Below are positions 45,117 to 61,511 of a DNA stretch of 64,000 nucleotides, in pieces. The DNA is taken from positions 5,084 through 69,083 of the forward strand of contig CAZGQY010000001.1 in assembly GCA_964528035.1 (NCBI GenBank), read 5' to 3'. The notes under the pieces were generated by a model, which was not told where the DNA came from, did no database searches, and saw only the letters and a program-made list of their open reading frames with translations. Source of the DNA: an uncultured Methylococcaceae bacterium (GTDB lineage Bacteria; Pseudomonadota; Gammaproteobacteria; Methylococcales; UBA1147). A program made the translations under genes and the position numbers. Numbering within the stretch: position 1 is the stretch's first letter; every line of letters begins with the position of its first letter.

Positions 45117-45146
45117 AAAAAACTGACTGCAATTATTGCCAGTCAG
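45117..45146 (-). terminator. rho-independent terminator after cysM
   Basis: On the minus strand: a 7-bp stem CTGACTG / CAGTCAG with a 10-nt loop, followed by TTTTTT. The stem includes the cysM stop codon. Confidence 0.6.
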
Positions 45147-46033
45147 GCTGGAAATACATCTGTCGACAAATAACGGTCACCTCGGTCACAAATGATTGTC
45201 ACGATAACCGAGTCAGTAATCTCCCGCGACAGCCTCAAAGCAGCTGCAACTGCACCACCCGAAGAAATTCCAGAAAATACCCCTTCTTTCGAGGACATTA
45301 AGCGTGTCGTTTCTTCTGCTTCTTCCTGACTCACATCGATAATTCTATCAACCCGATCTGCATTATAAATCTTCGGTAAATAAGCCTCAGGCCAACGTCG
45401 AATTCCAGGAATCTTTGCATCCGCCAGGGGTTGTACGCCAATAATTTGTATTTCTGGATTTTTCTCTTTTAAAAACTGAGAAGTACCCATAATTGTCCCG
45501 GTTGTACCCATAGAGCTCACAAAATGAGTGACTTGTCCGTCAGTATCTCTCCAAATTTCCGGGCCAGTACCCTCATAGTGTGCACGGGGATTATCAGGAT
45601 TTGAGAACTGATCCAGTATTTTACCTATACCATCGGTTTCCATCTGCCTGGATTTATCAATCGCGGCCTCCATACTACCTTCTGCAGGAGTAAGAATTAT
45701 CTCAGCACCAAATGCCTTCATGACTGCTCGACGTTCAACACTCATATTATCAGGCATAATCAATATCATTCGATAACCTTTGATCGCAGCCGCCATTGCC
45801 AATGCAATTCCAGTATTACCACTGGTCGCTTCTATCAAACAATCCCCCGGTTTAATTTCTCCCCGCAATTCAGCATGCCTGATCATACTAATCGCTGGTC
45901 TGTCTTTTACAGATCCAGCTGGATTATTACCTTCTAATTTAACCAGGAAGGTATTGCGAGTATTACCCGGCAATCGTTGCAGCTTTACCAAAGGCGTGTT
46001 ACCCACAAAAGATTCAAGGGATAAGACACGCAT
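45143..46033 (-). CDS. cysM: cysteine synthase B (O-acetylserine sulfhydrylase)
   Basis: 296-aa ORF with the PLP-lysine context NPAGSVKDRPA, plus EATSGNTGIALA and GTTGTIMG. Its start ATG overlaps the upstream TAA by 1 nt (TAATG at 46031-46035). Confidence 0.85.
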   Translation of the reverse strand: MRVLSLESFVGNTPLVKLQRLPGNTRNTFLVKLEGNNPAGSVKDRPAISMIRHAELRGEIKPGDCLIEATSGNTGIALAMAAAIKGYRMILIMPDNMSVERRAVMKAFGAEIILTPAEGSMEAAIDKSRQMETDGIGKILDQFSNPDNPRAHYEGTGPEIWRDTDGQVTHFVSSMGTTGTIMGTSQFLKEKNPEIQIIGVQPLADAKIPGIRRWPEAYLPKIYNADRVDRIIDVSQEEAEETTRLMSSKEGVFSGISSGGAVAAALRLSREITDSVIVTIICDRGDRYLSTDVFPA

Positions 46034-49000
46034 TAGATCGCTCTGGTCGTATGATTCTGTGATACAAATTTATCGTAAAAATCCACTGATGGTACCGGTT
46101 TACTAATGAAATAGCCCTGCACAATATCACAATCATGAAGACGAAGAAATTCATATTGAGCCTGATTTTCCACCCCTTCCGCAACCACACTCAATTTTAG
46201 TTTATGTGCCAACTGGATCATGCCATCAATGACGGCGGACCCTGGCTTATCTTCGGGAACGTCACGAACAAAACTTCTATCGATCTTCAACACTTGAACC
46301 GGTAATCGTTTTAAATAACTGAAAGACGAATAGCCCACACCAAAATCGTCAATCGCAACCGTTACACCCATCGCTGATAACTGATTGAGCCTGGCAACCG
46401 TTTCCTCACCATGTTCCAGAACCAGATTCTCAATAATTTCCAATTCCAGATACTGTGGCTCCAAACCGGTAATTTCCAAACAAGCCTTGACGTCATCCAC
46501 AAACGTCGCTCCCATAAACTCCCGAGCAGATACATTCACAGCGACATGCCCCATAAAACCATTTTCATCCTGCCAAATCTTAAACTGCTGACAGGCCATG
46601 CGCATCGTCCAGTGTCCAATCTGGCTGATCAAACCGGCTTCTTCTGCAATAGGTATAAAACAATTAGGCAATAAAAATCCCCTCTTGGGATGCTGCCAGC
46701 GCACCAAAGCTTCGGCACCCACTACCTCACTGCGGCGAACATCGATTTTTGGCTGGAAATAAAGTATCAGTTCATTATTTTGAATAACCCGGCGTAAATC
46801 AGATTCCAGATCAATACGCTCAGAGATACTGGTACTCATTTCCACGGTATAAAACTGATAATTGTTACGCCCCAGGGCTTTTGCCCGGTACATCGCCGTA
46901 TCCGCATTTTTTAACAGGGCTTCGCGATCTTCCCCATCATCAGGAAAAACCGATATTCCAATGCTCGCTCCAACATAAATCTCTTTACCTGCGATATGAA
47001 AGGGTGTCGACAGTGCCAATAAAATATTCTGAGCTGCAATGTCCGCCCCTTTTGGTCCGTGAACCGAGCTCAGCACTACAACAAACTCATCGCCCCCCAT
47101 CCGAGCAAGGGTATCTTCACTTCGTACACAACCGCTGACCCGCTCGGCCAAAAACTTCAATAATTCGTCTCCAGCGGCGTGTCCCAAATTGTCATTTACA
47201 TCCTTAAAATGATCAATATCGATAAACATAATCGCCAATTGATTATTATTTCTGCGAGCATAGGCAATATCCTGTAATAAACGATCCGAAAACGCGATTC
47301 GATTAGGTAATCCGGTCAACCCGTCATTATAGGCCAGTTGTTTAACTCTCTCTTCAGTCTCTCGAGCATCTAGAACACGCTTCACACGTTGACGAAGAAC
47401 AGCCAGATTAATAGGTTTTGGAATAAAATCTGCCGCACCGGAACTAAATGCACGATCAACAGATTCATCATTTTCCAGTGCTGTAATAATAAGGATCGGT
47501 GTAAGGCGTCCATTCGGTAACCGCTTGATCTCCTGACTCGCTTCAAAACCATCCTTCACCGGCATTACAGCATCCATTATGATCAAATTGGGACTGAATT
47601 GAATGAATTTATCTATTGCCTGCTGACCGTTAGTTGCTTGCTCTATAGTTAAACCATCCGCCTGCAAAGCACTGGCAATGGTCAATCGGGTACTACGATC
47701 ATCGTCGACAACAAGTACCAACTCATACTTGCCACTTTCAATTTGACTTCTGCTTGATTTCAGTGATGTTGATTTTTCGTTCAGGCACCTTTCAACCTGA
47801 ATATACTCTTCGCGTAAATCAACAATGCGTTGGCTAATCTGCGAATCTGAAATATCTTCTTCCTGGGATAATTCTTCAATTTCACGACATATAGAGGCAA
47901 ACATATTGGCACCTAGATTTCGTGAACTACCCTTCAGACTATGTGCAGTTGCATGCAGTTGACTCCAATCCTGCTTATTTAAGGCATTATCAATCTGATC
48001 AATATAATTTGGTGTATCCGCAAAAAATGCATCAATAATTTCACCTACTTTATTACCGATAGCATTTTCGAGATTCTGGAAACTTTCTGTGTCAATTCTG
48101 GAGGTTTTCTGAGAATTGGAAACCCGGAACTGCCCTGGATTACCGACCGGCAGGTCTTTTAATTTCTTTCTAAGAATTGCCAAATTTAAGGGTTTAATCA
48201 GGTAATCGTTCATACCCACATCAAGGCAACGCCGAATATCATTCGGGTTATCAACTGCAGTCATTGCAAAAATCGGGATTTTACTCATATCACCATTCAA
48301 TGAACGAATTTTTCTTGTTGCCTCGTAGCCATCCATTACGGGCATATTACAGTCCATCAAAATAAGGTCGTAATTTTTATCGGCTATCAGGAAAAGGGCT
48401 TCCTGACCATTCGCTGCTACGTCTGCCTGAAACCCGGATTCCTTAAGCATCGCCTTGGCAACCAGTTGATTGGTACGATTATCATCTACAATTAATATAT
48501 AAGCCCCCAAATTATCGGATACCAGTGGCTTTTTGACGCGTTTATCAACCCCCTTTTCGGTTTCCCACAGTCCTTCTGTAAATTGAGCAATGCGCGCATT
48601 CAAGGCAGACAAGCGCACAGGTTTAGTCAATGTCGCATCATAGTCCTGGCAATCACCCTCTAGAAAACCGGAATTACTCAAAATGACCATGATCGTTTTC
48701 GAATTTTTGCCCCAACTACAAATGTCCTGTCTAAAACGATTAACTCCCGAAACACATACAGATAAGTCGAATATACAGATTCTTTCTTGCTGGCTTTCCG
48801 GCCATTTCTTCAGCTGATTCATGATTTCCGTTTCACTACCTCCAGCAATACAACTGCAACCAAATGATCGCAAATTGGCGACAAGGTAATTGCGGTTAGT
48901 CTGGTTAGTATCTGCAACAATGACCTGAACTCCAGAAAAACATGGATTGACCTGATATTTTTTGGTGATACTAATGGGAATTGCGAATGAAAACACACTC

Positions 49001-50475
49001 CCTTCGCCCTCAACACTTTCGACAAGCAATTCTCCCCCCAACAATTGGATTAACTGCTTACATATAGTCAATCCAAGTCCTGTACCACCAAACTTTCTTG
49101 TAGTTCCCCCGTCAGCCTGTCGAAAAGATTCGAATATTTTATTCTGTGCTTCTTTGGGAATACCTATCCCAGTATCGCGGACTAAAAAATTAAACCATGA
49201 ATTATCACCATCATCCGTGTATACAGAACTGGATAACACGACTTCACCCTGATCAGTAAACTTAACCGCATTACTCAACAGATTATTCAATATTTGGCGC
49301 AATCGTGTAATATCGCCCGCAACGATTACAGGAAGGTCACTCGGAATATCCAAACAAATTTCTATATTTTTTGCCTGGGCTTTCTCTGAGAACAGTGCAG
49401 CAACATCCTCCAGGCATTCACGCAAATTAAACTTGACCACTTCCAATTCAAGCTTACCCGCTTCAATTTTGCTGAAATCAAGAATATCGTTAATCAGGGC
49501 CAGCAACGCATCCCCAGAATTAATTGCCACATTCAAATATTCTGACTGTCGATCAGGTACACCAATTTCATTGAGTAAATTCAACATTCCCAACACACCA
49601 TTTAAAGGTGTTCTGATCTCATGGCTAACCACAGCAGCAAATTCTGTCTTTGCTCGTGCCGTTTCCAAAGCCTGGTCACGTGCATCCTTCAATTCTGATT
49701 CGCGTTCTTCCAATACAGACATCATCGAATTAAATGCCTGCTCCATATCCACGATATCTTTTGGTCCTTCCAGCTTTGCCCGAATCTGGGTCTCACCATT
49801 TTCAGCCCGCTGCATGATTCCCGACAAATTTTCCAATGGCGTCGTCAGTTTTCTGGTAATAAACCTGAGAACAATTAATAGTACCGACGCCAATGAAACC
49901 GCTATCAAAGCATTAACAAACAATATTTTCTGAGTCATCTCCTGTAAACTTGCTTTGCTTACCGCAACCAATACATAGCCTAAAGTCTGAACGCTGGCTC
50001 GTGTTTCATCATAAGGAGATTCTACATTTTCTTCAGAGGATGAAGAACTAACTTTCGCAGCGAAATACCAGTAGTCCGACAAATCTTTAACCAGTTGTGC
50101 GTTAAAAGTTAGTCCATGTGTCCAATTTCCCAGATCAGCAGCAGACTCAGCCCCTTGAGCCAATAAAAGTTTATAGTCCGGATAAAAGATTGACACATGC
50201 TTAACGTCCGGAAAATCCAACATGGTATTGGCTGGAAGCTGAGCATTCTCTGCAGCCCCATATAACAATGCCAATCTACTTTGCGCAGCAAAACTGTCGG
50301 TCAAATGAATCCCCTGATTCACGAAACGATCTACTGCAGCCTGGGTTACTACAAAGGAAATGAGCGACGAAGAAATAAGGGAAAGAATCAAAATCCCAAA
50401 TATGAACGTTGTGGACAGTTGCCGATTAAAACTTATATTACGATGATAGAGCCAGGACATACCCTCAGAACCCAC
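46033..50475 (-). CDS. hybrid sensor: TM-periplasmic-TM-HAMP-HisKA-HATPase-REC(divergent)-REC-Hpt-REC-GGDEF-EAL (1480 aa)
   Basis: Motifs read in order: HisKA SHEIRTPLNG (His about residue 285); HATPase DTGIGIP and GGTGLGL; a divergent receiver (IVADTN, IFDLS, LTKP); REC (ILIVDDN, LILMDCNMPVMDG, LIKP); Hpt HSLKGSS; REC (VLVVDDD, LIIMDAVMPVKDG, IPKP); GGDEF with RSED five residues upstream; EAL (GAEALVRW), DDFGVG, EGVE. The start is GTG 50475 or ATG 50460. Confidence 0.9.
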   Translation of the reverse strand: MGSEGMSWLYHRNISFNRQLSTTFIFGILILSLISSSLISFVVTQAAVDRFVNQGIHLTDSFAAQSRLALLYGAAENAQLPANTMLDFPDVKHVSIFYPDYKLLLAQGAESAADLGNWTHGLTFNAQLVKDLSDYWYFAAKVSSSSSEENVESPYDETRASVQTLGYVLVAVSKASLQEMTQKILFVNALIAVSLASVLLIVLRFITRKLTTPLENLSGIMQRAENGETQIRAKLEGPKDIVDMEQAFNSMMSVLEERESELKDARDQALETARAKTEFAAVVSHEIRTPLNGVLGMLNLLNEIGVPDRQSEYLNVAINSGDALLALINDILDFSKIEAGKLELEVVKFNLRECLEDVAALFSEKAQAKNIEICLDIPSDLPVIVAGDITRLRQILNNLLSNAVKFTDQGEVVLSSSVYTDDGDNSWFNFLVRDTGIGIPKEAQNKIFESFRQADGGTTRKFGGTGLGLTICKQLIQLLGGELLVESVEGEGSVFSFAIPISITKKYQVNPCFSGVQVIVADTNQTNRNYLVANLRSFGCSCIAGGSETEIMNQLKKWPESQQERICIFDLSVCVSGVNRFRQDICSWGKNSKTIMVILSNSGFLEGDCQDYDATLTKPVRLSALNARIAQFTEGLWETEKGVDKRVKKPLVSDNLGAYILIVDDNRTNQLVAKAMLKESGFQADVAANGQEALFLIADKNYDLILMDCNMPVMDGYEATRKIRSLNGDMSKIPIFAMTAVDNPNDIRRCLDVGMNDYLIKPLNLAILRKKLKDLPVGNPGQFRVSNSQKTSRIDTESFQNLENAIGNKVGEIIDAFFADTPNYIDQIDNALNKQDWSQLHATAHSLKGSSRNLGANMFASICREIEELSQEEDISDSQISQRIVDLREEYIQVERCLNEKSTSLKSSRSQIESGKYELVLVVDDDRSTRLTIASALQADGLTIEQATNGQQAIDKFIQFSPNLIIMDAVMPVKDGFEASQEIKRLPNGRLTPILIITALENDESVDRAFSSGAADFIPKPINLAVLRQRVKRVLDARETEERVKQLAYNDGLTGLPNRIAFSDRLLQDIAYARRNNNQLAIMFIDIDHFKDVNDNLGHAAGDELLKFLAERVSGCVRSEDTLARMGGDEFVVVLSSVHGPKGADIAAQNILLALSTPFHIAGKEIYVGASIGISVFPDDGEDREALLKNADTAMYRAKALGRNNYQFYTVEMSTSISERIDLESDLRRVIQNNELILYFQPKIDVRRSEVVGAEALVRWQHPKRGFLLPNCFIPIAEEAGLISQIGHWTMRMACQQFKIWQDENGFMGHVAVNVSAREFMGATFVDDVKACLEITGLEPQYLELEIIENLVLEHGEETVARLNQLSAMGVTVAIDDFGVGYSSFSYLKRLPVQVLKIDRSFVRDVPEDKPGSAVIDGMIQLAHKLKLSVVAEGVENQAQYEFLRLHDCDIVQGYFISKPVPSVDFYDKFVSQNHTTRAI

Positions 50476-51413
50476 TATTGCATTGGAAAAACCAAATCAA
50501 ATGACTTTCCTTCCCTTGCCAATAAGTCTATCCCCAGATGTTTTGCAGTTCTCATATTGACCGCTGTCTTCAGTGTGCGCAATACCTCAACACCAGACCG
50601 AATCGACCGGGATTCAATCGATTGAGCCAGTTTACCCAACTCCTGTCCCATTTTAAAGTTATCCGGGTACATAGAGAACAGAGCACCCCGTTTGGCGTGG
50701 ACCAATTTACTTGAAAATACGATCAATCGTCGGCGCCACGCTTCTTCCAGAAGAGAAGGCAGTATGGAATCTGAATCCATCGTAGTTCTATCCTGCATTA
50801 ACCAAATGGCATTGGTAGTACTGTCTATGGTAGCACTTAATTCACGATACACTAATGCTGCTGCCCTTAAATCACGGGCTTCTCTGGCATCAAGTTTTAT
50901 ACCTAAGTTCATCGCCCACCGCTTCGCTTGTTCAATAAGTTTTTGATTATTATCGGGGTTATAGACAACGGATACTGTCTTAATGGAGGGTGCGAATAGT
51001 TTCAATTTCTTAAACAGAATGTTCGGATCGGGTACTAATGAAATACCCACTGTAGACAACGTTTGTTGTTCTATCCTGGTAGATAGAACAGCACCGACAA
51101 CAACAGGAATATCCAGGCCGGTTTGGCGAATGGCTTTAACTCCACGCAAGCCCAAAGCAAGTACCACCTGATTTCCATGGTTTTCTATTTCAGATTGAAG
51201 ACGAATACTGTCGAATGATTTACTGAGTGAATATTTATCGATTGGCCGACCAATCTCTGATTCGATACCGCCTATTATAGTCTCAAAAATCTTTTTATAA
51301 GGCTCGCGCAATTCCGGGTAAACAACCCCCAAAGGAGCGCCATTGGCAAAACCCCAAACACTCGAAGCCATAAGACTAAATGCTAAAAACGCGACTCGGC
51401 ACAAAGTATTCAA
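50475..51413 (-). CDS. orphan periplasmic substrate-binding protein (ABC_sub_bind / COG2984-like)
   Basis: 312 aa with a signal peptide (AFSLMASSVWGFA). Its layout matches the PF04392-type family as I recall it (PVVVGAVL, IKTVSVVYNP, AVNMRTAKHLGIDL). There is no ABC permease or ATPase gene nearby. Confidence 0.7.
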   Translation of the reverse strand: MNTLCRVAFLAFSLMASSVWGFANGAPLGVVYPELREPYKKIFETIIGGIESEIGRPIDKYSLSKSFDSIRLQSEIENHGNQVVLALGLRGVKAIRQTGLDIPVVVGAVLSTRIEQQTLSTVGISLVPDPNILFKKLKLFAPSIKTVSVVYNPDNNQKLIEQAKRWAMNLGIKLDAREARDLRAAALVYRELSATIDSTTNAIWLMQDRTTMDSDSILPSLLEEAWRRRLIVFSSKLVHAKRGALFSMYPDNFKMGQELGKLAQSIESRSIRSGVEVLRTLKTAVNMRTAKHLGIDLLAREGKSFDLVFPMQ

Positions 51414-51469
51414 ACCGCAGTCCAGTTTATTAAATTCATCCTAAATTTCAAAGCAATAATCCGTATAAA

Positions 51470-53605
51470 TTATTTTAAATGGTAACGAAGTTCGAAATAA
51501 AAAAAGCGTCCGGCCTGTGGAAAATCGCCGGGTACCAGACTGGTATTTGCATTATCAAATGGTGGGCTCGGTTCACGTATATCCACGTCAAATAAATTCG
51601 AGACCGATGCACTGACACCCAAATTATCGAAAATATCCTCACCACGCAGCGTCATGTCTACCGTAAAATAATCCGCTACCTGGTTACGCCTGTCCATGGC
51701 CGAACGCTTGCGATCACCGACCCAGTTAGTCTGCACATCCCAATTCCAGTCGGGAAAAAACTCCCAGTCTGCACGAGCATAAACCTGATGAGTCGGTGCA
51801 AAACCGACATTAGTATTAGTCGTTTCGTCCTCTGAAACCTGAAACGCGTAATTAGCCGTAAAACGAAACGAATCTAATATGGCCCACTGTCCTTCCAACT
51901 CGAGTCCGTATCCCGTTTGGTTACCGGCATTCTGAAATGTCCGAGTTGGCGTTCCCGGCCCTGAATCCACCATTGGGCGGATAATATCTTCATACCAGTA
52001 ACGATACAGATTCAACTTAGCTCTCATGTTTTCTTTTGGCTGGTAGTCAAATGCGAGCTCCAGAGTATTGATTGTTTCCGGAGTGAGGTCTGGATTTCCC
52101 AGCAAAGTCGGAGTTTCGTCGTTTGCAAACTGCTCACCGAATGACGGAGCTCGAAACGCTCGGCCATACAATAATTTAGTCGTCAAACTATAGTTCGTCT
52201 GCCAAACCAGAGCGGCCCTGGGATTAACTGTACTGCCGAAATCGGAGTAATGATCGTATCGAACACCCCAGGTTAAGGTCCAATCCTTGGCTAAGTCCCA
52301 CTCATGCTGAAAAAAACCAAATACGATACTGCGACTATGCGGATCAATGAAGGGTCTGCCTCTCGCACCAGGTTGAAGAGGTATTGGAAAAGGATTTCCA
52401 CTCTGAAAAAAATTCTTCTCATCATCTACTTTATACATGTCTTCAAACCGGTAACCAACACCCACTTTCACCAGGTGGTCTTTAAAACCGTCATAGGTTC
52501 CCGAAGCATTTATCCGATAATGCCGCTCGTATATTGTCGGGCTACCTAACACGCCGTTAGGAAAAGAATTTATAGCGATTACCCGCGATTGGGAATCCAG
52601 TTGTGGAAAAGCAGAGTTTGCAGGTGCCAATTGAAAATCAGATTGATTCACCACATCAAAAAAGCTAAGTTGAGACGATAGATTCCAATGGTCAAACCAA
52701 TCTGTGTTTTCATAGCTTAGATCGGCATTAAAGCGGGAACTTCTATTGCTGCCATTAGGGTCTAGCGCCTGAATAAACCCTGCACCGGTTCCCACATTAT
52801 CCCGACCTTGCCACCAAAGACGCAGACGCCAGTCTTCAAGAGATAGATCCAGACTGGTATCGATATATTGACGGCCGACGCTAACTGACCCGGGTGCCAA
52901 CGAAGCAGTCGTTCCAAATTGGCTATCGAAAAAGTTCTGTGCATCAATATCTATTTTTCGTTTGTGCCCTTGTGTCGAGCCCGCCTGAAATGAAAAAGCC
53001 GCTTCCACACCATTGAAGTTCCCGCTGTACTGGAGCCAACCTTCACGGGTATCAAATTCACCCCCTCGAAAGCCTATATCCAACCCATCAATGTCTTCAT
53101 GTGTTTTAGTAATAACATTGATCACGCCGGCAAATGCATCGGCGCCATAAACGGCAGACCCAGGCCCACGAATCACTTCAACCCGAGAAATATTCTGCAC
53201 GGGCATGCCTCCCCATACCTGCCCCCGATGCCCGGTAAATACATTAGTAATCGGTATCCCATTGACTAAAACCAGCACCTGCGCATTAATATCTGAATGC
53301 ACGCCACGAATTGAAAATACTGGATTAAAATTCGTTGTCGAAACAGAAACATGTAGCCCAGGCACACTTTCAAGCACCTGATTTAAATCAGTCGCCCCCA
53401 TCTTCTGAATTTCACTGGCAGTGACCACTGAAGTCACTGCGGGTGCCAACTTAAGTAGTTGCTGACTTCCAGTCGCGATACTTACATATTGCTCTCCGCC
53501 ATAGGCATCATCCAGATCCAGTTCGTCCTCATCCATCGACCAAACCAAACTCGAAAAACATAGCAACAAAAACAATAGTGACTGAGTGACTAATTGCGTG
53601 ATCAT
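51470..53605 (-). CDS. TonB-dependent outer-membrane receptor
   Basis: 711 aa. It has a signal peptide, a plug domain (TSVVTASEIQKMGATDLNQVLESVPGLHV, VEVIRGPGSAVYGADAFAGVINVITK) and a long beta-barrel region rich in alternating aromatic residues. Confidence 0.85.
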   Translation of the reverse strand: MITQLVTQSLLFLLLCFSSLVWSMDEDELDLDDAYGGEQYVSIATGSQQLLKLAPAVTSVVTASEIQKMGATDLNQVLESVPGLHVSVSTTNFNPVFSIRGVHSDINAQVLVLVNGIPITNVFTGHRGQVWGGMPVQNISRVEVIRGPGSAVYGADAFAGVINVITKTHEDIDGLDIGFRGGEFDTREGWLQYSGNFNGVEAAFSFQAGSTQGHKRKIDIDAQNFFDSQFGTTASLAPGSVSVGRQYIDTSLDLSLEDWRLRLWWQGRDNVGTGAGFIQALDPNGSNRSSRFNADLSYENTDWFDHWNLSSQLSFFDVVNQSDFQLAPANSAFPQLDSQSRVIAINSFPNGVLGSPTIYERHYRINASGTYDGFKDHLVKVGVGYRFEDMYKVDDEKNFFQSGNPFPIPLQPGARGRPFIDPHSRSIVFGFFQHEWDLAKDWTLTWGVRYDHYSDFGSTVNPRAALVWQTNYSLTTKLLYGRAFRAPSFGEQFANDETPTLLGNPDLTPETINTLELAFDYQPKENMRAKLNLYRYWYEDIIRPMVDSGPGTPTRTFQNAGNQTGYGLELEGQWAILDSFRFTANYAFQVSEDETTNTNVGFAPTHQVYARADWEFFPDWNWDVQTNWVGDRKRSAMDRRNQVADYFTVDMTLRGEDIFDNLGVSASVSNLFDVDIREPSPPFDNANTSLVPGDFPQAGRFFYFELRYHLK

Positions 53606-53723
53606 GTCATTACCATTATTCGATTATTAATCTAAGTGTTTGTGATTCGACATCTACTCTTTAATGCATTTCGAACAAACTGTATAAATTGATAAGTATT
53701 TTCGCTAATAAAATCCGTACACG

Positions 53724-53748
53724 AAAAAAAGAGAATGATTTCCATCTC
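53724..53748 (-). terminator. candidate rho-independent terminator after the citrate-synthase-like gene pair
   Basis: On the minus strand: GAGATG-gaaat-CATTCTC (6 bp with one bulge) followed by TTTTTTT. It begins 17 nt after the stop at 53765. Confidence 0.45.
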
Positions 53749-53764
53749 AACAAGTTTGTGGCCG

Positions 53765-54568
53765 CTAATCCCAAGTTCTTTTCTCTGTTCCCAGGTAATC
53801 TATTTGCTCGCAACGCAAAGGAAAAAGACTCGCTTCAGAATGCTCCGATGCATCGATAAAACAAGGTGGAAATCCAGCAAGGAAAAGGGGAACCATGAAC
53901 ATATTAAATTGGTTCGCAGAAAACCCAATATCAGCACACAATGCAGCCACCAACGCCCCGTAATTCATTCGTATCAGTTTTCCCGAATCTCTTAATACTT
54001 GTTCTATTTCAAATGCTAAATCAAAATAAGTACCCTTCGTAAAATCTAATTTTTCCATTAAAGAAAGCATAGATTCAACACGTTCATCCATGCTAGCCTT
54101 GGGTCGACCATAGCCGAAAATGATTCTTTTTTTTGCTATTTCTGCTGCGACGATATCAACCAAATGATCGCCCCGAACAATCATTTCCTGAGCTTTAATA
54201 AAAAACTTCAGCGCTTCTGTTAACGCCAACCCTCCAAAAATCTCGGTATCAGATACTGCTATCGCTGCACCTACGCCCAGAGCCCCGGTACTTCTTACCG
54301 TACCCGCCAAAGCCGCAACCCGATTATTCCAGATACGAGGATCAGGGTAGCTTGTATGCACCCATATAGCGTTAAGAATTTTTAATTCGGTTTGAGTAAA
54401 TGTTCTGCCGGTTATCCCATAAAGATACACTTCCATCCAGCTCATCTCCCCAAGATCTCTGTGCAGTTCTTTATCTCGTAATATCACCCGCTCTTGATAA
54501 ACAAACCCGCCCATTCGAGTCCGCCATTTTCCCTCGCTTTGCAATAATCCAGTATTCCCTTTCAGCAC
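53765..54568 (-). CDS. citrate synthase / citryl-CoA lyase-fold protein, paralog B (~267 aa)
   Basis: I chose the start at GTG 54568 (GGGGAG 7 nt upstream). TTG 54583 is the alternative, and the 321-aa track ORF would overlap paralog A by 143 nt. By eye it aligns to the citrate synthase C-terminal half: EIFGGLALTEA at the HGGA position and IIFGYGRPKASMDERV at the GFGHRVY..DPR position. Confidence 0.6.
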   Translation of the reverse strand: MLKGNTGLLQSEGKWRTRMGGFVYQERVILRDKELHRDLGEMSWMEVYLYGITGRTFTQTELKILNAIWVHTSYPDPRIWNNRVAALAGTVRSTGALGVGAAIAVSDTEIFGGLALTEALKFFIKAQEMIVRGDHLVDIVAAEIAKKRIIFGYGRPKASMDERVESMLSLMEKLDFTKGTYFDLAFEIEQVLRDSGKLIRMNYGALVAALCADIGFSANQFNMFMVPLFLAGFPPCFIDASEHSEASLFPLRCEQIDYLGTEKRTWD

Positions 54569-54587
54569 TAAATCACTCCCCAATCTT

Positions 54588-55382
54588 TTATTTTTTAACA
54601 GATTCTGAAACGATTTCCAATGAATCCATAAAAAAAGGATATTGACGCCATCCAGCCTTCTGTTCCAATGCATGTACCGCCGCGCCAGGAAGACGAAGCA
54701 GTAGATACAGCATTTCCGATTGATCAACACTCAGGTCCAAATCGATAAACGCTGCTGCAACTACACCAGACATTGCCAACGGACATTCTGCAAGTGATTC
54801 CACAGCCAAACGGTTTTCTTTCAGCCAGGCAAGCATCCCAGTCGAGTATATTTCTGTTAGATAATCGAGAGTTTGCAATACCGGACCGGCACAGCTAACC
54901 CCATGTGGATCAAATCCTGGCGGATGTTCGAACGGCGGCCAAATACTCGCACCCTGCTGCTCGACTGGTAAATTTAATTGTTTTTGCCATAAATCAACAT
55001 TTGTCCCACAGTTTTTCCATAATTGCATCGCTTCCACAATGTCTCGCCCCCCGCCAAACTCCCCTGCCCCTATAGCTAATGCTGCGATCAAACTCGCTGC
55101 ATTTGCCGAACCGCTGACACTTCCATTCATGGCCGCGCGAACACTATGATCACGTGGCCCTGGATTAGCCAATGCCAGGGCAACAGCTTCCAGTAGCGTC
55201 TTCTGGACATCATTAGGCCGTTCGCCGACGAATAAAAGATACAGATACTCTATCCAACTTGCTTTACGCAGCAACTCACCATACACATCATAGCCGCTAC
55301 AAAAACATGTCGATGCTGCGAACGGATTATTCTTCTCGGATATTTCTTTCCAGATTTTGCTCGATATTTTTTCTTTGCTCAC
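54588..55382 (-). CDS. citrate synthase / citryl-CoA lyase-fold protein, paralog A (264 aa)
   Basis: GTG 55382 with GAGGA 6 nt upstream. It overlaps the ThDP enzyme gene by 56 nt. RDHSVRAAMNGSVSG, GAGEFGGGRDIVEAM and RLPGAAVHALEQ align by eye with the DHE..ST, HGGA and R..GW.AH..E regions of citrate synthases. Confidence 0.6.
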   Translation of the reverse strand: MSKEKISSKIWKEISEKNNPFAASTCFCSGYDVYGELLRKASWIEYLYLLFVGERPNDVQKTLLEAVALALANPGPRDHSVRAAMNGSVSGSANAASLIAALAIGAGEFGGGRDIVEAMQLWKNCGTNVDLWQKQLNLPVEQQGASIWPPFEHPPGFDPHGVSCAGPVLQTLDYLTEIYSTGMLAWLKENRLAVESLAECPLAMSGVVAAAFIDLDLSVDQSEMLYLLLRLPGAAVHALEQKAGWRQYPFFMDSLEIVSESVKK

Positions 55383-57297
55383 TCAATTTCCTCGAAGAAT
55401 TTAATAACTCCACTCGCAATCCCATTGGCGGAACTTCTTCGGGATCGATATAGACATCAAGTAAAATCGGGCTTCTTTTTTCACATAATGAATGAATATC
55501 CAGTTTCGCCAGATCACTCGGCGAATGAATCGTATAAGCTTCGATACCCATCGATTGGGCAAACAGATTAAAATCCACTTTCGGTAGTTGAAAGGCGATT
55601 TCGGCTGCGTTTGCTAATTTTTGACCATGCTTAACCATACCCAATGCGGAGTCATTAAGAATGACATAAATAATTGATAAGCCCTCCATCTGAGCAACCG
55701 TGATCTCCTGACCGCTCATAAGCATACTGCCATCACCAGTAATACATACAACAGGACATTCAGGATTTGCAAAAGCGGTACCTACGGCTGCGCCAATCGC
55801 CCAACCCATTGACGCAAATTCTATCCCGGCTCTATAGTTTGCCGTATCAACCCATGGCTGCCCGTCCCTGCGGCGACCCGGATCGAGAAAATCGGAACGT
55901 ACCCAGGAACGTCGGTTCCCGATTCTGCGTTCTGCCGGATGAAGATAATGAGTCGCCCAGGCAAAGCTATTGCCGATATCCGCTAAATACCTTGTACCTG
56001 GTGGAAATATTTGCCCCAAATCATTCATCAACCTCTGTGGTTTTATTGGAGAACTGTCGTCGATAAATTTTTGCGGTTCACTAAGTTTACAATGAGGCAT
56101 CAATGGCTGCGTATCGACGTTCGTGACGCCATCTTTTATGATTGATTGCTGAAGACTGGCACGCGTTTTTACATCGGGTAATTCCAATGATGAAACATGC
56201 TCAATCAAATATTGACAAACTACTCCAATTGACCCGATAACCTGTAATTTTGCCATCGGTGACCGTAAAAAATGCGCTGCAACAGGGTCGATATGAATCA
56301 ACCGATCATTGAGTAACGATTGCTCATCCCAGCCACCACTCGCCAACTCACATAGATTACTACCAAAGGCAATTACCAGGTCAACCTCTGGATTTCTCAA
56401 CGTTTCGACTGCGCTAACATGCCCGGCAAATCCGAACACGCCTCGGTTAAGTGGGTGGTACGAACTAATCAAACCTTTGCCATCAATAGAGGTAACAACT
56501 TCCACGCCCAGTAATACTGCCAGATCCAGCACGGCAGCAGCGTCACGATTGGCACCTATTCCAAGAACGAATACTATTTTCCGAGAATTTTTTATTTCAA
56601 TTAACAGGCGACTCAGAATATCCGGATTAACCTGAATCTCACGATTACCGAAAAGATTGATATCCAGGTTATAGTTATGGCATTCAGCAGGCGCATCCAG
56701 CACATCAATTGGCACTGAAAGATGTACCGGACCACAAGGAGCCTGGTGCGCAGCCATAATAGCTGCTACCAGTTTGTTTTCAAGTTGCGCAGAGTGGGAA
56801 ACCAGCGAATTGTAACGCGTACAATGCTGAAACATACCCAATGTATTTAAGCTGGTACAAGAAGATTCCTGGGATGCCCCTTTACCAAAGGTACAAAGCG
56901 CAGTCTGCGCAGTGAGCACAAGGAGTGGGATTTCATTTTCGTAGGCAGATGCTACACCAGTAATCAGATTGGTCGCGCCAGGACCCGTCGTACCACAACA
57001 GACTCCCATGACCCCACTTTCCCTGGTATAACCATCCGCCATAAAAGCCGCACCGGTTTCATGCCTTGAAACGATGGCTCGTAATCCTCCTCTGGATTCA
57101 CTCCTGTGCAAAGCATTGTAGAGCGGCTCTATAGCCCCACCAGGAATTCCAAAGATAAATTTAACCCCGATTTTCTCGAGATAATAAACTATTAAATCAC
57201 TGTTTTTCGATACAAGCGACTCTGAATCAACACCATTCTGGTAAGATTCAGTTTGATCCACTTGCTTGGTAATTGAAGCTGATTTCATAATTGACAA
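55327..57297 (-). CDS. acetolactate-synthase-like thiamine-diphosphate-dependent enzyme
   Basis: The N-terminal pyrimidine-binding domain has FIFGIPGGAIEPLYNAL and GPGATNLITGVA. The ThDP motif is GDGSMLMSGQE...ILNDSALG. An Arg-rich insertion, ERRIGNRRSWVRSDFLDPGRRRDGQPW, precedes it. The start is TTG 57297 or, more likely, ATG 57288. Confidence 0.85.
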   Translation of the reverse strand: MSIMKSASITKQVDQTESYQNGVDSESLVSKNSDLIVYYLEKIGVKFIFGIPGGAIEPLYNALHRSESRGGLRAIVSRHETGAAFMADGYTRESGVMGVCCGTTGPGATNLITGVASAYENEIPLLVLTAQTALCTFGKGASQESSCTSLNTLGMFQHCTRYNSLVSHSAQLENKLVAAIMAAHQAPCGPVHLSVPIDVLDAPAECHNYNLDINLFGNREIQVNPDILSRLLIEIKNSRKIVFVLGIGANRDAAAVLDLAVLLGVEVVTSIDGKGLISSYHPLNRGVFGFAGHVSAVETLRNPEVDLVIAFGSNLCELASGGWDEQSLLNDRLIHIDPVAAHFLRSPMAKLQVIGSIGVVCQYLIEHVSSLELPDVKTRASLQQSIIKDGVTNVDTQPLMPHCKLSEPQKFIDDSSPIKPQRLMNDLGQIFPPGTRYLADIGNSFAWATHYLHPAERRIGNRRSWVRSDFLDPGRRRDGQPWVDTANYRAGIEFASMGWAIGAAVGTAFANPECPVVCITGDGSMLMSGQEITVAQMEGLSIIYVILNDSALGMVKHGQKLANAAEIAFQLPKVDFNLFAQSMGIEAYTIHSPSDLAKLDIHSLCEKRSPILLDVYIDPEEVPPMGLRVELLNSSRKLSEQRKNIEQNLERNIREE

Positions 57298-57626
57298 CCC
57301 TTTGTATTAACGACTCCCTTAGCCCCAGTGCACTATTCCAACTTTCTTATTACACCTACACATTGAAGTATAGAAGCATTTAAAGGAATCGTCTGTAAGC
57401 TATCGGTATCCATACTAAAATTGCCAACCAAGCTGGGCCACTGTACAGCATATCACGCACAAAAAACATATCTTTCGAGAAAGAAATAATGCCCTAAATC
57501 GCTGTTTATCATGGAGTCAATAATTAAATAGCAGTCTTTTTTTATGATTATCTATTATATCGATATTTTTATCGGGTAATGACTGTATTGAAAAAAAGCC
57601 AATGCTTAAATTCACCAGCCGTATCT

Positions 57627-60600
57627 CTAAGCTACCCACTCCCTGGCATTTTGAAAAAACCGACTCCATGGTCCATTAATACTCAGTCCGGCTGTTCTCC
57701 ATGTATTTTGCACCGCTCTAAAACAGCGCTCCGGATGCGGCATCATAATAGTGAAGCGCCCATCTGTACTGGTAAAACCCGTCACACCCGAGACTGAACC
57801 ATTAGGATTCCCGGGGTATTTTTCCGTATGGTTGCCATAGTTATCAATATACCGTAAACAATCTATTGATTCCGTTAATCCCCGTTTTTGGGTAAACACT
57901 GCACGGCCTTCACCATGAGCAACCACAACAGGAAACCGCGAACCCTGCATACCCGAAAAAAATACCGATGGAGTATCCTGTACTTCGACCATCACAATTC
58001 GTGCTTCAAATTGCTCGGAAATATTTCGCGTAAATTCAGGCCACAAATCTCCACCAGGAATCATATCACTGAGACTCGCCAACATCTGGCACCCATTACA
58101 AACCCCCAACCCGAAACTATCGGAGCGTTCGAAAAAGGCAGCAAACTCGTCCCTTAACCGATTGTTGAACTGTATAGCGTTTGACCAACCACGACCTGCA
58201 CCCAAAACATCACCGTAAGAAAACCCCCCGCAAGCAACAATTCCAATAAAATCTTGTAGTGAAAAGTCCCCATTGTTTAAATCGTTCATATGCACATCAA
58301 CGCAAGTAAAACCAACCTGATCAAATGCAGCCGCCATCTCCAAGTGACCATTGACACCTTGTTCGCGTAATATCGCGAGTCGAGGGCGCGATGTATTCAC
58401 AAAAACTGTATTAAAATTGTCGTTAACGTTAAACGATAATTCAGAATGAAGTCCCGGATCATGATTATCAAGGATTGCATCAAATTCCTGTTGTGCTGCG
58501 TCAGGATTGTCGCGGATGGATTGAATCTTAAAGCTGGTTGAAGACCATTGCTGTTGAAATCCTGCTCGTGTCCCCTGGAGAATCGTTTGCCCCTGGTATC
58601 GAAATGAAATTGACTGGTCAGCACAGGGCTGCCCCAAGACATGACTGTACTGACTCAATCCGGCAGATTCCAATACGCTTAAAACCTGGGCACGATCCTT
58701 TGTTCTGATCTGAATAACCGCGCCTAACTCCTCATTGAACAGAACCCCGGAAAAGTCGTCGCCCAGTTCATCCAAATCTATCTTCAATCCCACTCGACCC
58801 GCAAAAGCCATTTCACATAAGCTAATGAATAATCCACCATCGGACCGATCATGATAGGCGAGTAAATACCCCTCTCTGTTCAATTGCTGGATACTCTCAA
58901 AAAAACCGATGAACAGCTGAGTGTTATTCAGGTCAGGGCACTGGTCACCCAATTGTTTATATACCTGAGCAAGAACAGATCCACCCAGGCGACATTTTCC
59001 CTGACCCAAATCGATCAATACCAAATCAGTATCGCCACCATTACGCTGCAACTCCGGAGTCAGTGTTTTTCGAACATCCAATACCTGCGCGAATGCAGAA
59101 ATAACAACCGATAGCGGCGCGATCATAGTCATGTCACCTTTTTGCCCGCGCCACACTGTTTTCATGGACAATGAGTCTTTGCCAACCGGAATCGCAATAC
59201 CCAACGCAGGACAAAGATCCATACCAATCGCTTCAACAGCTTCGAATAGCGTCACATCCTGATTTTCACTTCCGGCTGCTGCCATCCAATTGGCGGATAA
59301 CCTGATATCTGTCAATGAACCAACCCGAGCAGCAGCAATATTCGTCAGTGCTTCGCCAACCGCCATTCGAGCGGAACTCGGCCCACTCATGATAGCTATC
59401 GGTGACCTTTCGCCCATGGCCATCGCCTCTCCAGTAAAGCCCACAAAACCGGTGGTGGTCACTGCTACATCAGAAACCGCTACTTGCCATGGGCCCACCA
59501 TTTGGTCACGTGATACTAATCCGGTAATCGACCGATCACCAATAGTAATTAAAAACTTTTTATCTGCGACGACTGGATGATTCAATACCCGGCGCGCCAT
59601 TTCATCAATAGAATCTGTCGGTATTTTCAGGGGCGGAAAACGGACATTCACTGTCTTTGCCTGGCGTTGCAATCTGGGGAGTTTGCCAAACAACAGAGAC
59701 ATTGGAATATCTATCGGTTTGTTGTCGCGCCTGGTGTCTGTTACTTCCAGATGCTGCTGGTCACTTGCAAAACCAATGATGGCAAACGGGCAATTTTCTC
59801 GTTTACACAAATCTTTGAAAAACTCTAACCTACGCGTGGATAACGCCAACACATAACGTTCTTGCGCTTCGTTGCACCAAACCTGTAGCGGTGACATTGA
59901 ACGATCGGCACTGGGAATATTTCCAATTTCTATCAATCCTCCACGTTGACTATCATGCAATATTTCAGGGACAGCGTTTGACAATCCACCCGCGCCCACA
60001 TCGTGAATCGAAATAATCGGATTTTCCTGCATGGCGCAGCAGGTATTAATAACTTCCTGACAACGTCGTTGCATTTCCGGGTTATCGCGCTGTACCGATG
60101 CAAAATCCAAAGTCTCGGAACTTTCACCTGACGCCTGTGAGGAAGCCGCACCACCACCAAGACCAATCAACATAGCCGGACCACCAAGAACAATAATGGG
60201 TGTTCCATTCGGAATAGAGCCTTTTTTAACATTTTCAGCTCGAATATTACCCATGCCACCGGCTATCATGATTGGCTTGTGATAACCGAGAAGCTGACAA
60301 TCTCCACTTTCGTGAATCCGTTGTTCAAACGTACGAAAATAACCCGTCAGGTTCGGACGTCCAAATTCATTATTAAATGCAGCGCCGCCAATAGGAGCCT
60401 CCAGCATAATCTCCAGCGCCGAAACAATTCTCTCTGGTTTTCCGTGGCGTTCCTCCCAGGGTTGGGTAAAACCGGGAATATTCAAACTCGATACAGAAAA
60501 CCCGGTCAAACCTGCTTTTGTTTGCGAACCACGACCGGTTGCACCTTCGTCGCGAATCTCCCCGCCCGAACCCGTCGCAGCACCCGCAAAAGGCGAAATT

Positions 60601-61511
60601 GCCGTTGGGTGGTTATGCGTTTCAACTTTCATGAGCATGTGAACAGGCTCAAGCTGATAGATGTATTCTCCCGTGACAGGATTACGCTGAAACCTTTGCG
60701 CAACAGGACCTTCTGTAACCGCTGCGTTATCATCGTAAGCCGTCAGTATCCCCTTAGAATTACACTGCGTTGTATTTCGAATCATGGAGAACAAAGAGCG
60801 CGGCTGCAATTCGCCATCTATTTCCCAATCAGCGTTGAAAATTTTATGCCGACAATGCTCTGAATTTGCCTGCGCGAACATCATCAATTCAATGTCAGTG
60901 GGATTCCTTCCAAGTGCTTGATAGTTGCTCACAAGGTATTTCAACTCCGCTTCCGACAGCGCAAGACCGATCTCATCATTGACAGTCTGTAGGGCCGCCA
61001 AGGCGTTACTGCCCAATTCAACCCAACTTAATGGTTTCTGGGGTAAATGCTCAAACAGTTGATTACTTGTACCTTCGGGTAAAATCACTTGTGTCATTCG
61101 ATCACACAGACACTCAGATAAACTATTGCACACAACCTCTGGCAACTCCGTTCCCGTTACAGTCCCTAACAGGTATTCGATTCCACGTTCTATCCGCTGA
61201 ATTTTACTCAAGCCACATCGATGTAATATCTCTGTCGCTTTACTCGACCAGGGTGAAACCGTACCCAGACGTGGAACAACACAAATAGTATGAGTTGAAT
61301 TCTGTAGCTCCACCCCAGATGCAAAACGATCTTCAAGAATATTTTTAAGTTTGAAAGATTCAGCATCACTCAACGCTGTTTCCACTTTAACGTAGTAAAT
61401 ATAGCGGCTTGAAATGTCTGATATTTCTTTAGTAACTGTTTGAATTTCTGTGCGAAGTTTTTGTCGACGAAACTCAGAATGTGCTGTAGAACCGGAAAGT
61501 TTTAAGATCAT
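57627..61511 (-). CDS. purL: phosphoribosylformylglycinamidine synthase (single-chain large PurL)
   Basis: 1294-aa ORF (E. coli PurL is 1295 aa). It ends in a glutamine amidotransferase domain with the GVCNGCQ nucleophile context and a MPHPER motif. Confidence 0.95.
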   Translation of the reverse strand: MILKLSGSTAHSEFRRQKLRTEIQTVTKEISDISSRYIYYVKVETALSDAESFKLKNILEDRFASGVELQNSTHTICVVPRLGTVSPWSSKATEILHRCGLSKIQRIERGIEYLLGTVTGTELPEVVCNSLSECLCDRMTQVILPEGTSNQLFEHLPQKPLSWVELGSNALAALQTVNDEIGLALSEAELKYLVSNYQALGRNPTDIELMMFAQANSEHCRHKIFNADWEIDGELQPRSLFSMIRNTTQCNSKGILTAYDDNAAVTEGPVAQRFQRNPVTGEYIYQLEPVHMLMKVETHNHPTAISPFAGAATGSGGEIRDEGATGRGSQTKAGLTGFSVSSLNIPGFTQPWEERHGKPERIVSALEIMLEAPIGGAAFNNEFGRPNLTGYFRTFEQRIHESGDCQLLGYHKPIMIAGGMGNIRAENVKKGSIPNGTPIIVLGGPAMLIGLGGGAASSQASGESSETLDFASVQRDNPEMQRRCQEVINTCCAMQENPIISIHDVGAGGLSNAVPEILHDSQRGGLIEIGNIPSADRSMSPLQVWCNEAQERYVLALSTRRLEFFKDLCKRENCPFAIIGFASDQQHLEVTDTRRDNKPIDIPMSLLFGKLPRLQRQAKTVNVRFPPLKIPTDSIDEMARRVLNHPVVADKKFLITIGDRSITGLVSRDQMVGPWQVAVSDVAVTTTGFVGFTGEAMAMGERSPIAIMSGPSSARMAVGEALTNIAAARVGSLTDIRLSANWMAAAGSENQDVTLFEAVEAIGMDLCPALGIAIPVGKDSLSMKTVWRGQKGDMTMIAPLSVVISAFAQVLDVRKTLTPELQRNGGDTDLVLIDLGQGKCRLGGSVLAQVYKQLGDQCPDLNNTQLFIGFFESIQQLNREGYLLAYHDRSDGGLFISLCEMAFAGRVGLKIDLDELGDDFSGVLFNEELGAVIQIRTKDRAQVLSVLESAGLSQYSHVLGQPCADQSISFRYQGQTILQGTRAGFQQQWSSTSFKIQSIRDNPDAAQQEFDAILDNHDPGLHSELSFNVNDNFNTVFVNTSRPRLAILREQGVNGHLEMAAAFDQVGFTCVDVHMNDLNNGDFSLQDFIGIVACGGFSYGDVLGAGRGWSNAIQFNNRLRDEFAAFFERSDSFGLGVCNGCQMLASLSDMIPGGDLWPEFTRNISEQFEARIVMVEVQDTPSVFFSGMQGSRFPVVVAHGEGRAVFTQKRGLTESIDCLRYIDNYGNHTEKYPGNPNGSVSGVTGFTSTDGRFTIMMPHPERCFRAVQNTWRTAGLSINGPWSRFFQNAREWVA

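Follow-up and report, generated by a model that had tools for sequence, protein, structure and literature searches.

Thiamine diphosphate (ThDP) enzymes of the BbmA, CsmA and ScyA types join two 2-oxoacids, often aromatic ones, into alpha-hydroxy-beta-keto acids; ScyA itself joins aromatic 2-oxoacids. To our knowledge, none of these enzymes is accompanied by partners of the citrate-synthase fold, or is linked to a TonB-dependent receptor or a sensor. Here we describe a locus in which a ThDP enzyme is encoded together with all of these. It lies on a 64,000-nucleotide stretch of DNA from an uncultured Methylococcaceae bacterium (contig CAZGQY010000001.1; this whole stretch is called the window below, and positions are counted along it), and comprises genes for a ThDP enzyme (G1), two small proteins related to citryl-CoA lyase and citrate synthase (CSa and CSb), a TonB-dependent receptor (TBDR), a periplasmic solute-binding protein (PBP) of family PF04392 and a hybrid sensor kinase (HK), in the order ThDP-CSa-CSb-TBDR-PBP-HK on the minus strand between 46033 and 57297. 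The module is akin to small-molecule loci with a dedicated receptor and sensor, and its parts resemble known kinds, each failing a defining feature.

Conservation of the six-gene module

An initial annotation of this DNA had singled out the first three genes as a trio distinct from the receptor operon downstream. The trio is indeed conserved elsewhere, a co-occurrence survey having found it in hundreds of species, but it does not form a unit apart from the receptor operon, and supplies the enzymes of a larger module of six genes. When 1.84 billion representatives were searched exhaustively with a profile, 436 relatives of CSa were returned, and a scan of one genome per species identified such a relative in at least 456 species. 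Gene order was surveyed in the 80 best loci, 47 of which had enough flanking sequence to be assessed. The full order, on one strand, was found in 34 of these 47 loci, with the binding protein and a shorter kinase inverted in five others; the receptor follows the trio in 43, and the kinase adjoins the binding protein in 42. All-against-all clustering of the open reading frames (ORFs) of 82 loci identified only the six module families as common across lineages, the remainder being lineage-specific synteny. Neither the clustering nor the order survey revealed a conserved inner-membrane importer, transcription factor or exporter in the module.

The carriers include Nitrosococcus, Nitrosoglobus, Methylococcales, Cycloclasticus, Porticoccaceae/SAR92, Beggiatoa-like sulfur oxidisers and some Shewanella. 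Several of them are in culture (Shewanella salipaludis, Porticoccus litoralis DSM 25064, Nitrosococcus halophilus Nc4, N. oceani, Methylogaea oryzae and Catenovulum sediminis), and the hypothesis developed below is therefore directly testable. In N. halophilus and M. oryzae the trio is followed by a TBDR, a PF04392 protein and a hybrid kinase of about 1500 aa with GGDEF and EAL domains, and the gene order of S. salipaludis is that of the window. The locus nearest to the window module (L066), from a Methylococcaceae metagenome-assembled genome (MAG), shows 52-72% protein identity across the module, and its purL gene, 61% identical to that of the window, occupies the same neighbouring position.

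We additionally identified rearranged and divergent versions, in which the parts nevertheless remain linked, and reduced ones. Catenovulum sediminis encodes the binding protein with a short kinase, and on the opposite strand two citrate-synthase-like genes, the TBDR and the ThDP enzyme. Locus L090 encodes a separate REC-GGDEF-EAL protein, the ThDP enzyme and a CSa-CSb fusion, with the TBDR, a short-chain dehydrogenase/reductase (SDR), a short kinase and the binding protein on the other strand; its citrate-synthase halves are only 26% identical to CSa and CSb of the window. Among Betaproteobacteria the sensor pair may be absent: Sideroxydans (L084) has the trio and a convergent TBDR with no sensor pair, and Piscinibacter (L085) has the order ThDP-SDR-CSa-CSb with no TBDR, PBP or HK as far as the contig reaches. 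A Planctomycetota locus (L052) and locus L089 have the trio alone, with none of these three genes nearby.

Two citrate-synthase-fold proteins and their ThDP partner

CSa and CSb are only distantly related to characterised families. CSb scores 25.0 bits against PF00285 (threshold 27) and CSa has no Pfam match, while the best NCBIfam citryl-CoA lyase (CCL) models reach 36 bits for CSa and 54 bits for CSb, against cut-offs of 193-409. Profiles of the two families, each based on 20 homologs, both had as their best PDB match the Hydrogenobacter CCL 6hxp (E 2e-8 and 5e-9), followed by the CCL modules of ATP-citrate lyase and, weakly, by citrate synthases. AlphaFold models of moderate confidence (predicted local distance difference test, pLDDT, 66.5 for CSa and 69.3 for CSb; predicted template modelling score 0.70) were compared with the PDB by Foldseek, and matched only CCL, ATP-citrate-lyase, citrate-synthase and methylcitrate-synthase structures (template modelling score 0.53-0.57), headed by 6hxp and the ATP-citrate lyase CCL modules. 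The assignment of both proteins to the CCL/citrate-synthase fold, which the initial annotation had made by eye, is sound. The resemblance that it saw between the two proteins holds at the profile level (hhalign probability 88%), but amounts to only 22% identity over 213 columns, and by this comparison CSa and CSb are paralogs at great distance only. Mean column identity within the families is 66% for CSa and 54% for CSb.

For each of the two families, 120 homologs were aligned to the sequence of 6hxp. In the aligned columns, the canonical catalytic His/His/Asp was found in none of the CSa homologs (0/120), none of the CSb homologs (0/120) and neither of the window proteins. The His of AHGGA is replaced by L, Y, N or F in CSa, and in CSb by Y/F or by G, depending on the register, with His in neither register. 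At the His of GYGHR, CSa has M, I or L and CSb a deletion (GYG-RP), and the Asp of NVDG reads S or T in CSa and A or G in CSb. The loss of the catalytic histidines that had been suspected from the window proteins is accordingly family-wide and extends to the Asp (0/240 homologs), and a check for an ordinary CCL with conserved catalytic residues found none that is canonical.

The two families are complementary in the oxaloacetate-binding arginines that they retain, and neither keeps both. The Arg of GRVPG (R401-like) is invariant in CSa (120/120), where it sits in the LRLPGAAVHALEQ motif, and is lost from CSb; that of DPR (R329-like) is invariant in CSb (120/120), where it sits in GYGRPxxxxDER, and is lost from CSa. 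CSb has eight invariant Arg residues in all. In both families conservation peaks at the remnants of the former active-site motifs. The conserved motifs (NPGPRDHS, EHPPGF, LRLPGAAVHALEQ, SYPDPRIWNNR and GYGRP..DER) include invariant His, Glu and Cys and many Arg residues. These motif remnants, with the invariant R401-like Arg of CSa and R329-like Arg of CSb, argue for the retention of a pocket.

The description of G1 as acetolactate-synthase-like was borne out. The Pfam domains TPP_enzyme_N, M and C are all present, its nearest relatives are carboligases, and the translation contains RHETGAAFMADGY and GDGSMLMSGQE...LND, the catalytic Glu and the ThDP motif. The best NCBIfam match is TIGR00118, the large subunit of acetohydroxyacid synthase (AHAS), at 281.9 bits against a cut-off of 538. 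All 25 NCBIfam models listed for G1 score under their cut-offs; many are of acetolactate-synthase type, at about half the cut-off or less. ScyA and ScyA-related models, the former named 'scytonemin biosynthesis protein ScyA', give 211-223 bits against cut-offs of 1000-1020. Among solved structures the closest are BbmA (E 7e-78) and CsmA (E 9e-71), followed by AHAS (about 1e-55) and glyoxylate carboligase (about 1e-41), with 2-hydroxyacyl-CoA lyase (HACL; about 1e-28) and benzaldehyde lyase (about 1e-27 to 1e-28) far weaker. The HACL match is some 50 orders of magnitude weaker than those to the carboligases, and ThDP enzymes acting on CoA esters are not the closest clade. The acyl-CoA chemistry envisaged by the initial annotation consequently gains no support from the ThDP enzyme (1e-78 to 1e-55 for 2-oxoacid carboligases, about 1e-28 for HACL and oxalyl-CoA decarboxylase); CSa and CSb may bind CoA.

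Two peculiarities of G1 are of narrower distribution. The Arg-rich insertion is in part a family motif, HYLHPxDRRIxGxR, although some orthologs are without the loop altogether and its extra 24 or so residues occur in the window and a few lineages only. The charged C-terminal tail (KLSEQRKNIEQNLERNIREE; 55327-55382, minus; the last 19 or so codons) is present as described, but is window-specific and is encoded out of frame by the first codons of CSa. It looks like a lineage-specific read-through rather than a functional extension, because orthologs stop about 20 residues sooner. We therefore rejected the long insertion and the tail as functional hallmarks of G1.

Public annotations of the kind 'citryl-CoA lyase', 'citrate synthase' and 'acetolactate synthase'-like would suggest ordinary metabolism, in which a housekeeping acetolactate synthase isozyme stands beside ordinary CCL or citrate synthase genes. 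The scores fall far short of the curated cut-offs, CSa and CSb lack the catalytic residues, and the genes are tightly linked to a TBDR and a sensor, not to those of central metabolism. We accordingly rejected CSa and CSb as an ordinary CCL or citrate synthase. In Sideroxydans (L084) the module has beside it a separate ilvB-ilvN-ilvC set, with whose ilvB G1 shares 26% identity; by this comparison G1 is not the housekeeping AHAS. We consider the ordinary-metabolism account almost certainly wrong.

Several observations bear on whether the three proteins act together. We identified CSa-CSb fusions in gene order in three divergent lineages (P0312, P0326 and P0349; 516-574 aa), and a ThDP-CSa fusion with a linker of about 30 residues on one contig (P0248, 885 aa; L089), where the start of the CSb gene overlaps the stop of the fusion. 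Across the 80 loci, the median gap is 0 nt between the ThDP and CSa genes and 3 nt between CSa and CSb (with longest-ORF starts), the genes mostly overlapping or nearly abutting. These data indicate that G1, CSa and CSb probably form a complex, because of the three natural CSa-CSb fusions and the one ThDP-CSa fusion, and on the same grounds the heteromer of citrate-synthase-fold proteins proposed by the initial annotation is likely.

Within such a complex CSa and CSb could be non-catalytic pseudoenzymes, serving as a structural hub or a regulatory subunit of the carboligase. The catalytic residues are gone in 240/240 homologs and each paralog has lost one oxaloacetate-binding Arg; the fusions and translational coupling imply a fixed stoichiometry with G1; and no ACT-type small subunit accompanies G1, a housekeeping ilvB-ilvN pair being present elsewhere in Sideroxydans L084. 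There are parallels in the ACT small subunit of AHAS, and in the CCL module that forms the oligomerisation core of ATP-citrate lyase. However, the conservation peak at the active-site remnants is better accounted for by a working ligand pocket or by new catalysis than by a scaffold function alone, and in one lineage CSb is fused to a ligand-binding/cyclase domain. This fusion, encoded by a Planctomycetota MAG (L052 10816-12102, plus strand), carries a C-terminal Polyketide_cyc2/SRPBCC domain (Pfam E 1.2e-14), with no TonB receptor, binding protein or kinase within 9 kb. A purely non-catalytic role, which would be compatible with any of the other readings discussed here, is a substantial possibility that we nevertheless place below an even chance.

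Other additions to the cluster are an SDR gene, found inside it in six loci, and a small-molecule-type O-methyltransferase (Methyltransf_2 with a dimerisation domain), also in six loci. Genes that intervene between the ThDP and CSa genes were rejected as pathway genes, and are mobile elements. A REP-associated tyrosine transposase occupies this position in four loci (L005, 9168-9704; L007; L030; L037) and a GIY-YIG endonuclease-like ORF in two (L011, 9256-9549; L022), so that in these uncultured Gammaproteobacteria mobile insertions separate ThDP and CSa genes that otherwise overlap. In two unrelated lineages, Planctomycetota (L052 7158-8168, minus) and Piscinibacter (L085 5034-6134, plus), the ThDP gene has a DNA_alkylation/HEAT-like gene immediately upstream, which could be there by chance or as an accessory component. 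In Nitrosococcus halophilus (L001 4569-7778), genes for a ThiD/PdxK-type kinase and a ThiS-rhodanese-ThiF fusion lie directly upstream of the module. Their proximity to a ThDP enzyme is probably coincidental, since the arrangement was not seen in other lineages.

The boundaries of the genes are collected in Table 1. The ORF list has the trio tightly packed, all on the minus strand, between purL (57627-61511) and the TBDR gene. The three minus-strand genes with their Shine-Dalgarno sites and GTG starts stand as first annotated, ORFs, spacers and homolog N-termini being in agreement. CSa starts 6 nt after GAGGA and CSb 7 nt after GGGGAG, and homolog N-termini agree with starts at 55382 and 54568. 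The lengths from public gene callers are 653 aa for G1, with ATG 57288 as its start, 264 aa for CSa and 267 aa for CSb. The G1 and CSa genes overlap by 56 nt, and a gap of 19 nt separates CSa from CSb. The longest CSb ORF (53765-54730, minus) runs 54 codons further upstream and overlaps the 3' end of CSa; automatic longest-ORF calling would therefore give 321 aa, not 267.

Table 1. Features of the locus, in the order of transcription, with positions in the window.
Feature	Positions	Strand	Remarks
Upstream non-coding region, purL-G1	57298-57626	minus	presumed promoter region
G1, ThDP enzyme	55327-57297	minus	656 aa if started at TTG 57297; a start at ATG 57288 (653 aa) is more likely
CSa	54588-55382	minus	264 aa, start GTG 55382
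CSb	53765-54568	minus	267 aa, start GTG 54568
CSb-TBDR spacer	53606-53764	minus	159 nt; holds the terminator candidate of the initial annotation, 53724-53748
TonB-dependent outer-membrane receptor	51470-53605	minus	711 aa; Pfam Plug and TonB_dep_Rec_b-barrel
Periplasmic solute-binding protein	50475-51413	minus	PF04392 (ABC_sub_bind), Pfam E 1.2e-15
Hybrid sensor kinase	46033-50475	minus	1480 aa; Pfam and NCBIfam

The terminator that had been assigned to the trio itself did not withstand analysis. The hairpin has a 4-bp stem followed by T7 and folds no better than shuffled sequence (minimum free energy -7.9, shuffle mean -8.1, z 0.09), and it was not reported by a consensus terminator scan. An independent three-gene operon with its own terminator was rejected, the hairpin being at the level of shuffled sequence and the downstream genes co-conserved. 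The spacer between CSb and the TBDR is at most 60 nt long in 44 of 65 other loci. At the other end, a terminator-like hairpin with a T-run (57620-57597, minus) directly after purL points to a promoter dedicated to the module in 57298-57596. Within this AT-rich interval there is a partial GATAATCAT repeat, which falls short of a Fur box. Counts from consensus promoter and terminator scans equalled the expectation from shuffled sequence, and are so uninformative.

The flanks are formed by housekeeping genes, with purL, a bamC-like gene and dapA on one side, and genes for a PALP enzyme, an rlmD-like protein and a YkuD protein on the other. The PALP-family (cysteine-synthase-like) gene (45143-46033, minus) begins at the base where the kinase ORF ends, and is followed by the rlmD-like methyltransferase and YkuD L,D-transpeptidase genes, which are of housekeeping type and outside the conserved module.

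Import, sensing and the possible role of the module

The TBDR of the window is without an N-terminal signalling extension, as judged by Pfam, and scores under every NCBIfam substrate-specific cut-off, its best subfamily matches being of the heme/siderophore type. A dedicated TBDR beside a small biosynthetic operon, as in 43 of the 47 loci, is a hallmark of siderophores and metallophores, and these matches, although all below cut-off, point the same way. Acyloin and alpha-hydroxy-acid groups can chelate metals. The trio might accordingly make a small chelator of the alpha-hydroxy-carbonyl or carboxylate type, the metal complex of which would be taken up by the TBDR and release its metal in the periplasm, with the PBP and kinase monitoring the loaded chelator. 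However, we found no Fur box in the window, and in about 70 loci the sequences upstream of the ThDP and TBDR genes were not enriched in Fur-like sites over shuffled sequence, Fur being the only operator considered. There was likewise no Rfam match at E<=1 in 45500-58000, and so no known riboswitch or other RNA, metal-responsive elements included. The module has no conserved non-ribosomal peptide synthetase (NRPS), NRPS-independent siderophore synthetase or opine-type synthetase, and no conserved inner-membrane permease or reductase, and PF04392 is known for aromatic amino acids, not for metal chelates. We consider a metallophore quite improbable.

The binding protein has an N-terminus that by eye resembles a signal peptide, and no gene for an ATP-binding cassette (ABC) permease or ATPase is present within the module. 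Solved PF04392 structures contain L-Trp, L-Tyr or L-Phe as ligands (PMC10443332). The window protein is distant from these structures (E about 1e-8), and its match to the tryptophan-binding-protein model TrpX is weak (44 bits, cut-off 390). Its homologs, down to 31% identity, are still located in the module. Sensing in the periplasm is favoured by the absence of a transporter for the binding protein, and by the translational coupling of its gene to that of a kinase which has a periplasmic domain.

The start of the kinase gene overlaps the stop codon of the PBP gene. The kinase has, in order, a transmembrane segment, a periplasmic domain of about 140 aa, a second transmembrane segment, and HAMP, HisKA, HATPase, REC, Hpt, REC, GGDEF and EAL domains. 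By eye the GGDEF and EAL domains are intact, and an RxxD site (RSED) lies five residues ahead of GGDEF. One polypeptide therefore combines a complete phosphorelay with a GGDEF/EAL output of its own. In seven loci (L026, L039, L043, L048, L071, L090 and L092) a kinase of about 500 aa is present instead.

The analysis shows the gene content and folds, the missing catalytic residues, the fusions, the co-conservation and the families to which the parts are related; from these we infer complex formation, a reaction, a secreted product, the nature of the ligand, and the identity of the sensed ligand with the enzyme product. We propose that the three proteins act as a heterotrimeric carboligase whose small-molecule product, probably formed from an aromatic 2-oxoacid, is secreted, that the TBDR re-imports it, and that the PBP and kinase sense it and set cyclic di-GMP (c-di-GMP); we give this account as a whole not quite an even chance. 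G1, CSa and CSb would assemble as a cytoplasmic complex, in which G1 would decarboxylate a 2-oxoacid, most plausibly one derived from an aromatic amino acid, and couple it with another carbonyl compound to form a product of the acyloin type. CSa and CSb would form a pseudo-symmetric heterodimer from which citrate-synthase chemistry is gone, but would probably retain a ligand pocket (for a carboxylate, possibly CoA), presenting substrate to G1 or processing its product. The product may be tailored in some lineages by an SDR, an O-methyltransferase or the fused SRPBCC domain. It would then leave the cell and be pumped back into the periplasm by its dedicated TBDR, where the PF04392 protein would bind it and signal to the kinase. 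The internal phosphorelay of the kinase would set the GGDEF/EAL output, which is to say the c-di-GMP level, and thereby govern a switch between motile and attached states. The ranking of G1 among carboligases, the O-methyltransferase and SDR genes, and the CSb-SRPBCC fusion favour the biosynthetic direction; the known ligands of PF04392 and the resemblance to ScyA hint by analogy at an aromatic ligand.

Five points weigh against this proposal. Secretion is assumed, because no exporter is conserved in the module. An aromatic substrate is an idea that goes back to distant family resemblance (PBP, E 1e-8; TrpX, 44/390 bits). The predicted models of CSa and CSb are moderate only, with pLDDT low exactly over the most conserved motifs. 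The trio occurs without TBDR, PBP or HK in some genomes (L052, L089 and L085), and the enzyme can therefore work without the sensor. Finally, the co-localisation fits enzymes that act on an imported compound equally well.

In that last case the TBDR would import a scarce external molecule, the PBP and kinase would adjust c-di-GMP, and the ThDP/citrate-synthase complex would cleave or convert the molecule; an unlinked inner-membrane carrier would be needed, and the reaction could be a ThDP-dependent C-C cleavage, with possible transfer of the acyl-ThDP to CoA on the citrate-synthase-fold subunits. A TBDR with a periplasmic sensor follows the logic of nutrient-utilisation loci, the CCL/citrate-synthase fold binds CoA esters, the eight invariant Arg residues of CSb would suit a polyanionic ligand such as CoA, and the lack of a conserved exporter is as expected for uptake. 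However, the module has neither a conserved inner-membrane importer nor further catabolic enzymes, and G1 is much nearer to carboligases (1e-78) than to ThDP lyases (about 1e-28). The addition of O-methyltransferases and of an SRPBCC cyclase is typical of biosynthesis, not catabolism, and the output is c-di-GMP and not the transcriptional induction of enzymes. Uptake and assimilation of an external compound is in our view unlikely.

Known systems and significance

We found no published description of the trio or of the six-gene module in the full-text literature, of which our coverage was incomplete; what the searches returned was a CitE-type citrate lyase of Caulobacter and unrelated work. 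The view of the initial annotation that the trio matches no described pathway thus stands, the literature search having found none and the trio passing no curated family threshold.

If the trio is a working complex, it combines two enzyme folds that are among the best studied, in a way for which we found no description, and the citrate-synthase fold would be acting as a pseudoenzyme partner or with new chemistry. If the sensing half is as proposed, an orphan hybrid GGDEF-EAL kinase would gain a specific candidate input, and a signal or cue that needs active import across the outer membrane before it is sensed would be an unusual mode of perception. In the carrier groups very little is known of signalling by small molecules or of the inputs to c-di-GMP, and the module is present in at least several hundred species. 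At its furthest, the proposal would be of a previously unrecognised circuit of chemical communication, in which a heterotrimer of a ThDP enzyme and a rewired citrate-synthase-fold pair makes a diffusible acyloin-type molecule that is imported through a TonB-dependent receptor and read by the PBP and kinase into c-di-GMP; this extension we regard as speculative. Such a circuit would be common to ammonia oxidisers, methanotrophs, sulfur oxidisers and marine hydrocarbon degraders; that it is new in kind as a signalling system, and its enzyme new in architecture, is less likely than not, but a genuine possibility.

Each part of the module can be set against its closest described counterpart. CSa and CSb share their size (about 260-270 aa) and fold with 6hxp of Hydrogenobacter thermophilus and with the CCL/CSH core module of ATP-citrate lyase, and remnants of the GYG loop and of the xGGA and (G/L)R(V/L)PG motifs are recognisable in them. 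Unlike 6hxp, both have replaced the His of AHGGA, the His of GYGHR and the Asp of NVDG. CCL is a homo-oligomer, whereas CSa and CSb are two diverged paralogs, each with a different substrate-binding Arg, and their partner is a ThDP enzyme instead of citryl-CoA synthetase.

AHAS (IlvB with IlvN or IlvH) likewise has a ThDP subunit encoded directly upstream of its small partner, with translational coupling, and shares with G1 the three canonical domains, the catalytic HE motif and the GDG...ND motif. However, the partners of G1 have the citrate-synthase fold and not ACT, G1 reaches about half of the AHAS equivalog cut-offs, and the HYLHPxDRRIxGxR loop is inserted in it. BbmA/CsmA (PDB 8x3x and 8x3z) provide the solved structures closest to G1, and ScyA cut-offs are far from reached.

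The sensing half most resembles LuxP-LuxQ, which responds to autoinducer 2, and TorT-TorS, with a PBP gene lacking an ABC transporter and coupled to a membrane hybrid kinase that has a periplasmic domain and HisKA-REC-Hpt. It differs from these in that the PBP belongs to PF04392, in kinase scores below the cut-offs for LuxQ (352 against 1200) and TorS (417 against 676), in a REC-GGDEF-EAL output in cis without a separate transcription factor, and in the TBDR that is integral to the module. Finally, as in pyoverdine and ferric-citrate loci and the SusC/D hybrid two-component loci of Bacteroidetes, TonB-dependent import would feed a sensor, and the receptor gene lies beside genes concerned with the ligand. 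Unlike those loci, the module has no receptor signalling domain, sigma/anti-sigma pair, Fur box, SusD or glycoside hydrolases, and its predicted output is c-di-GMP.

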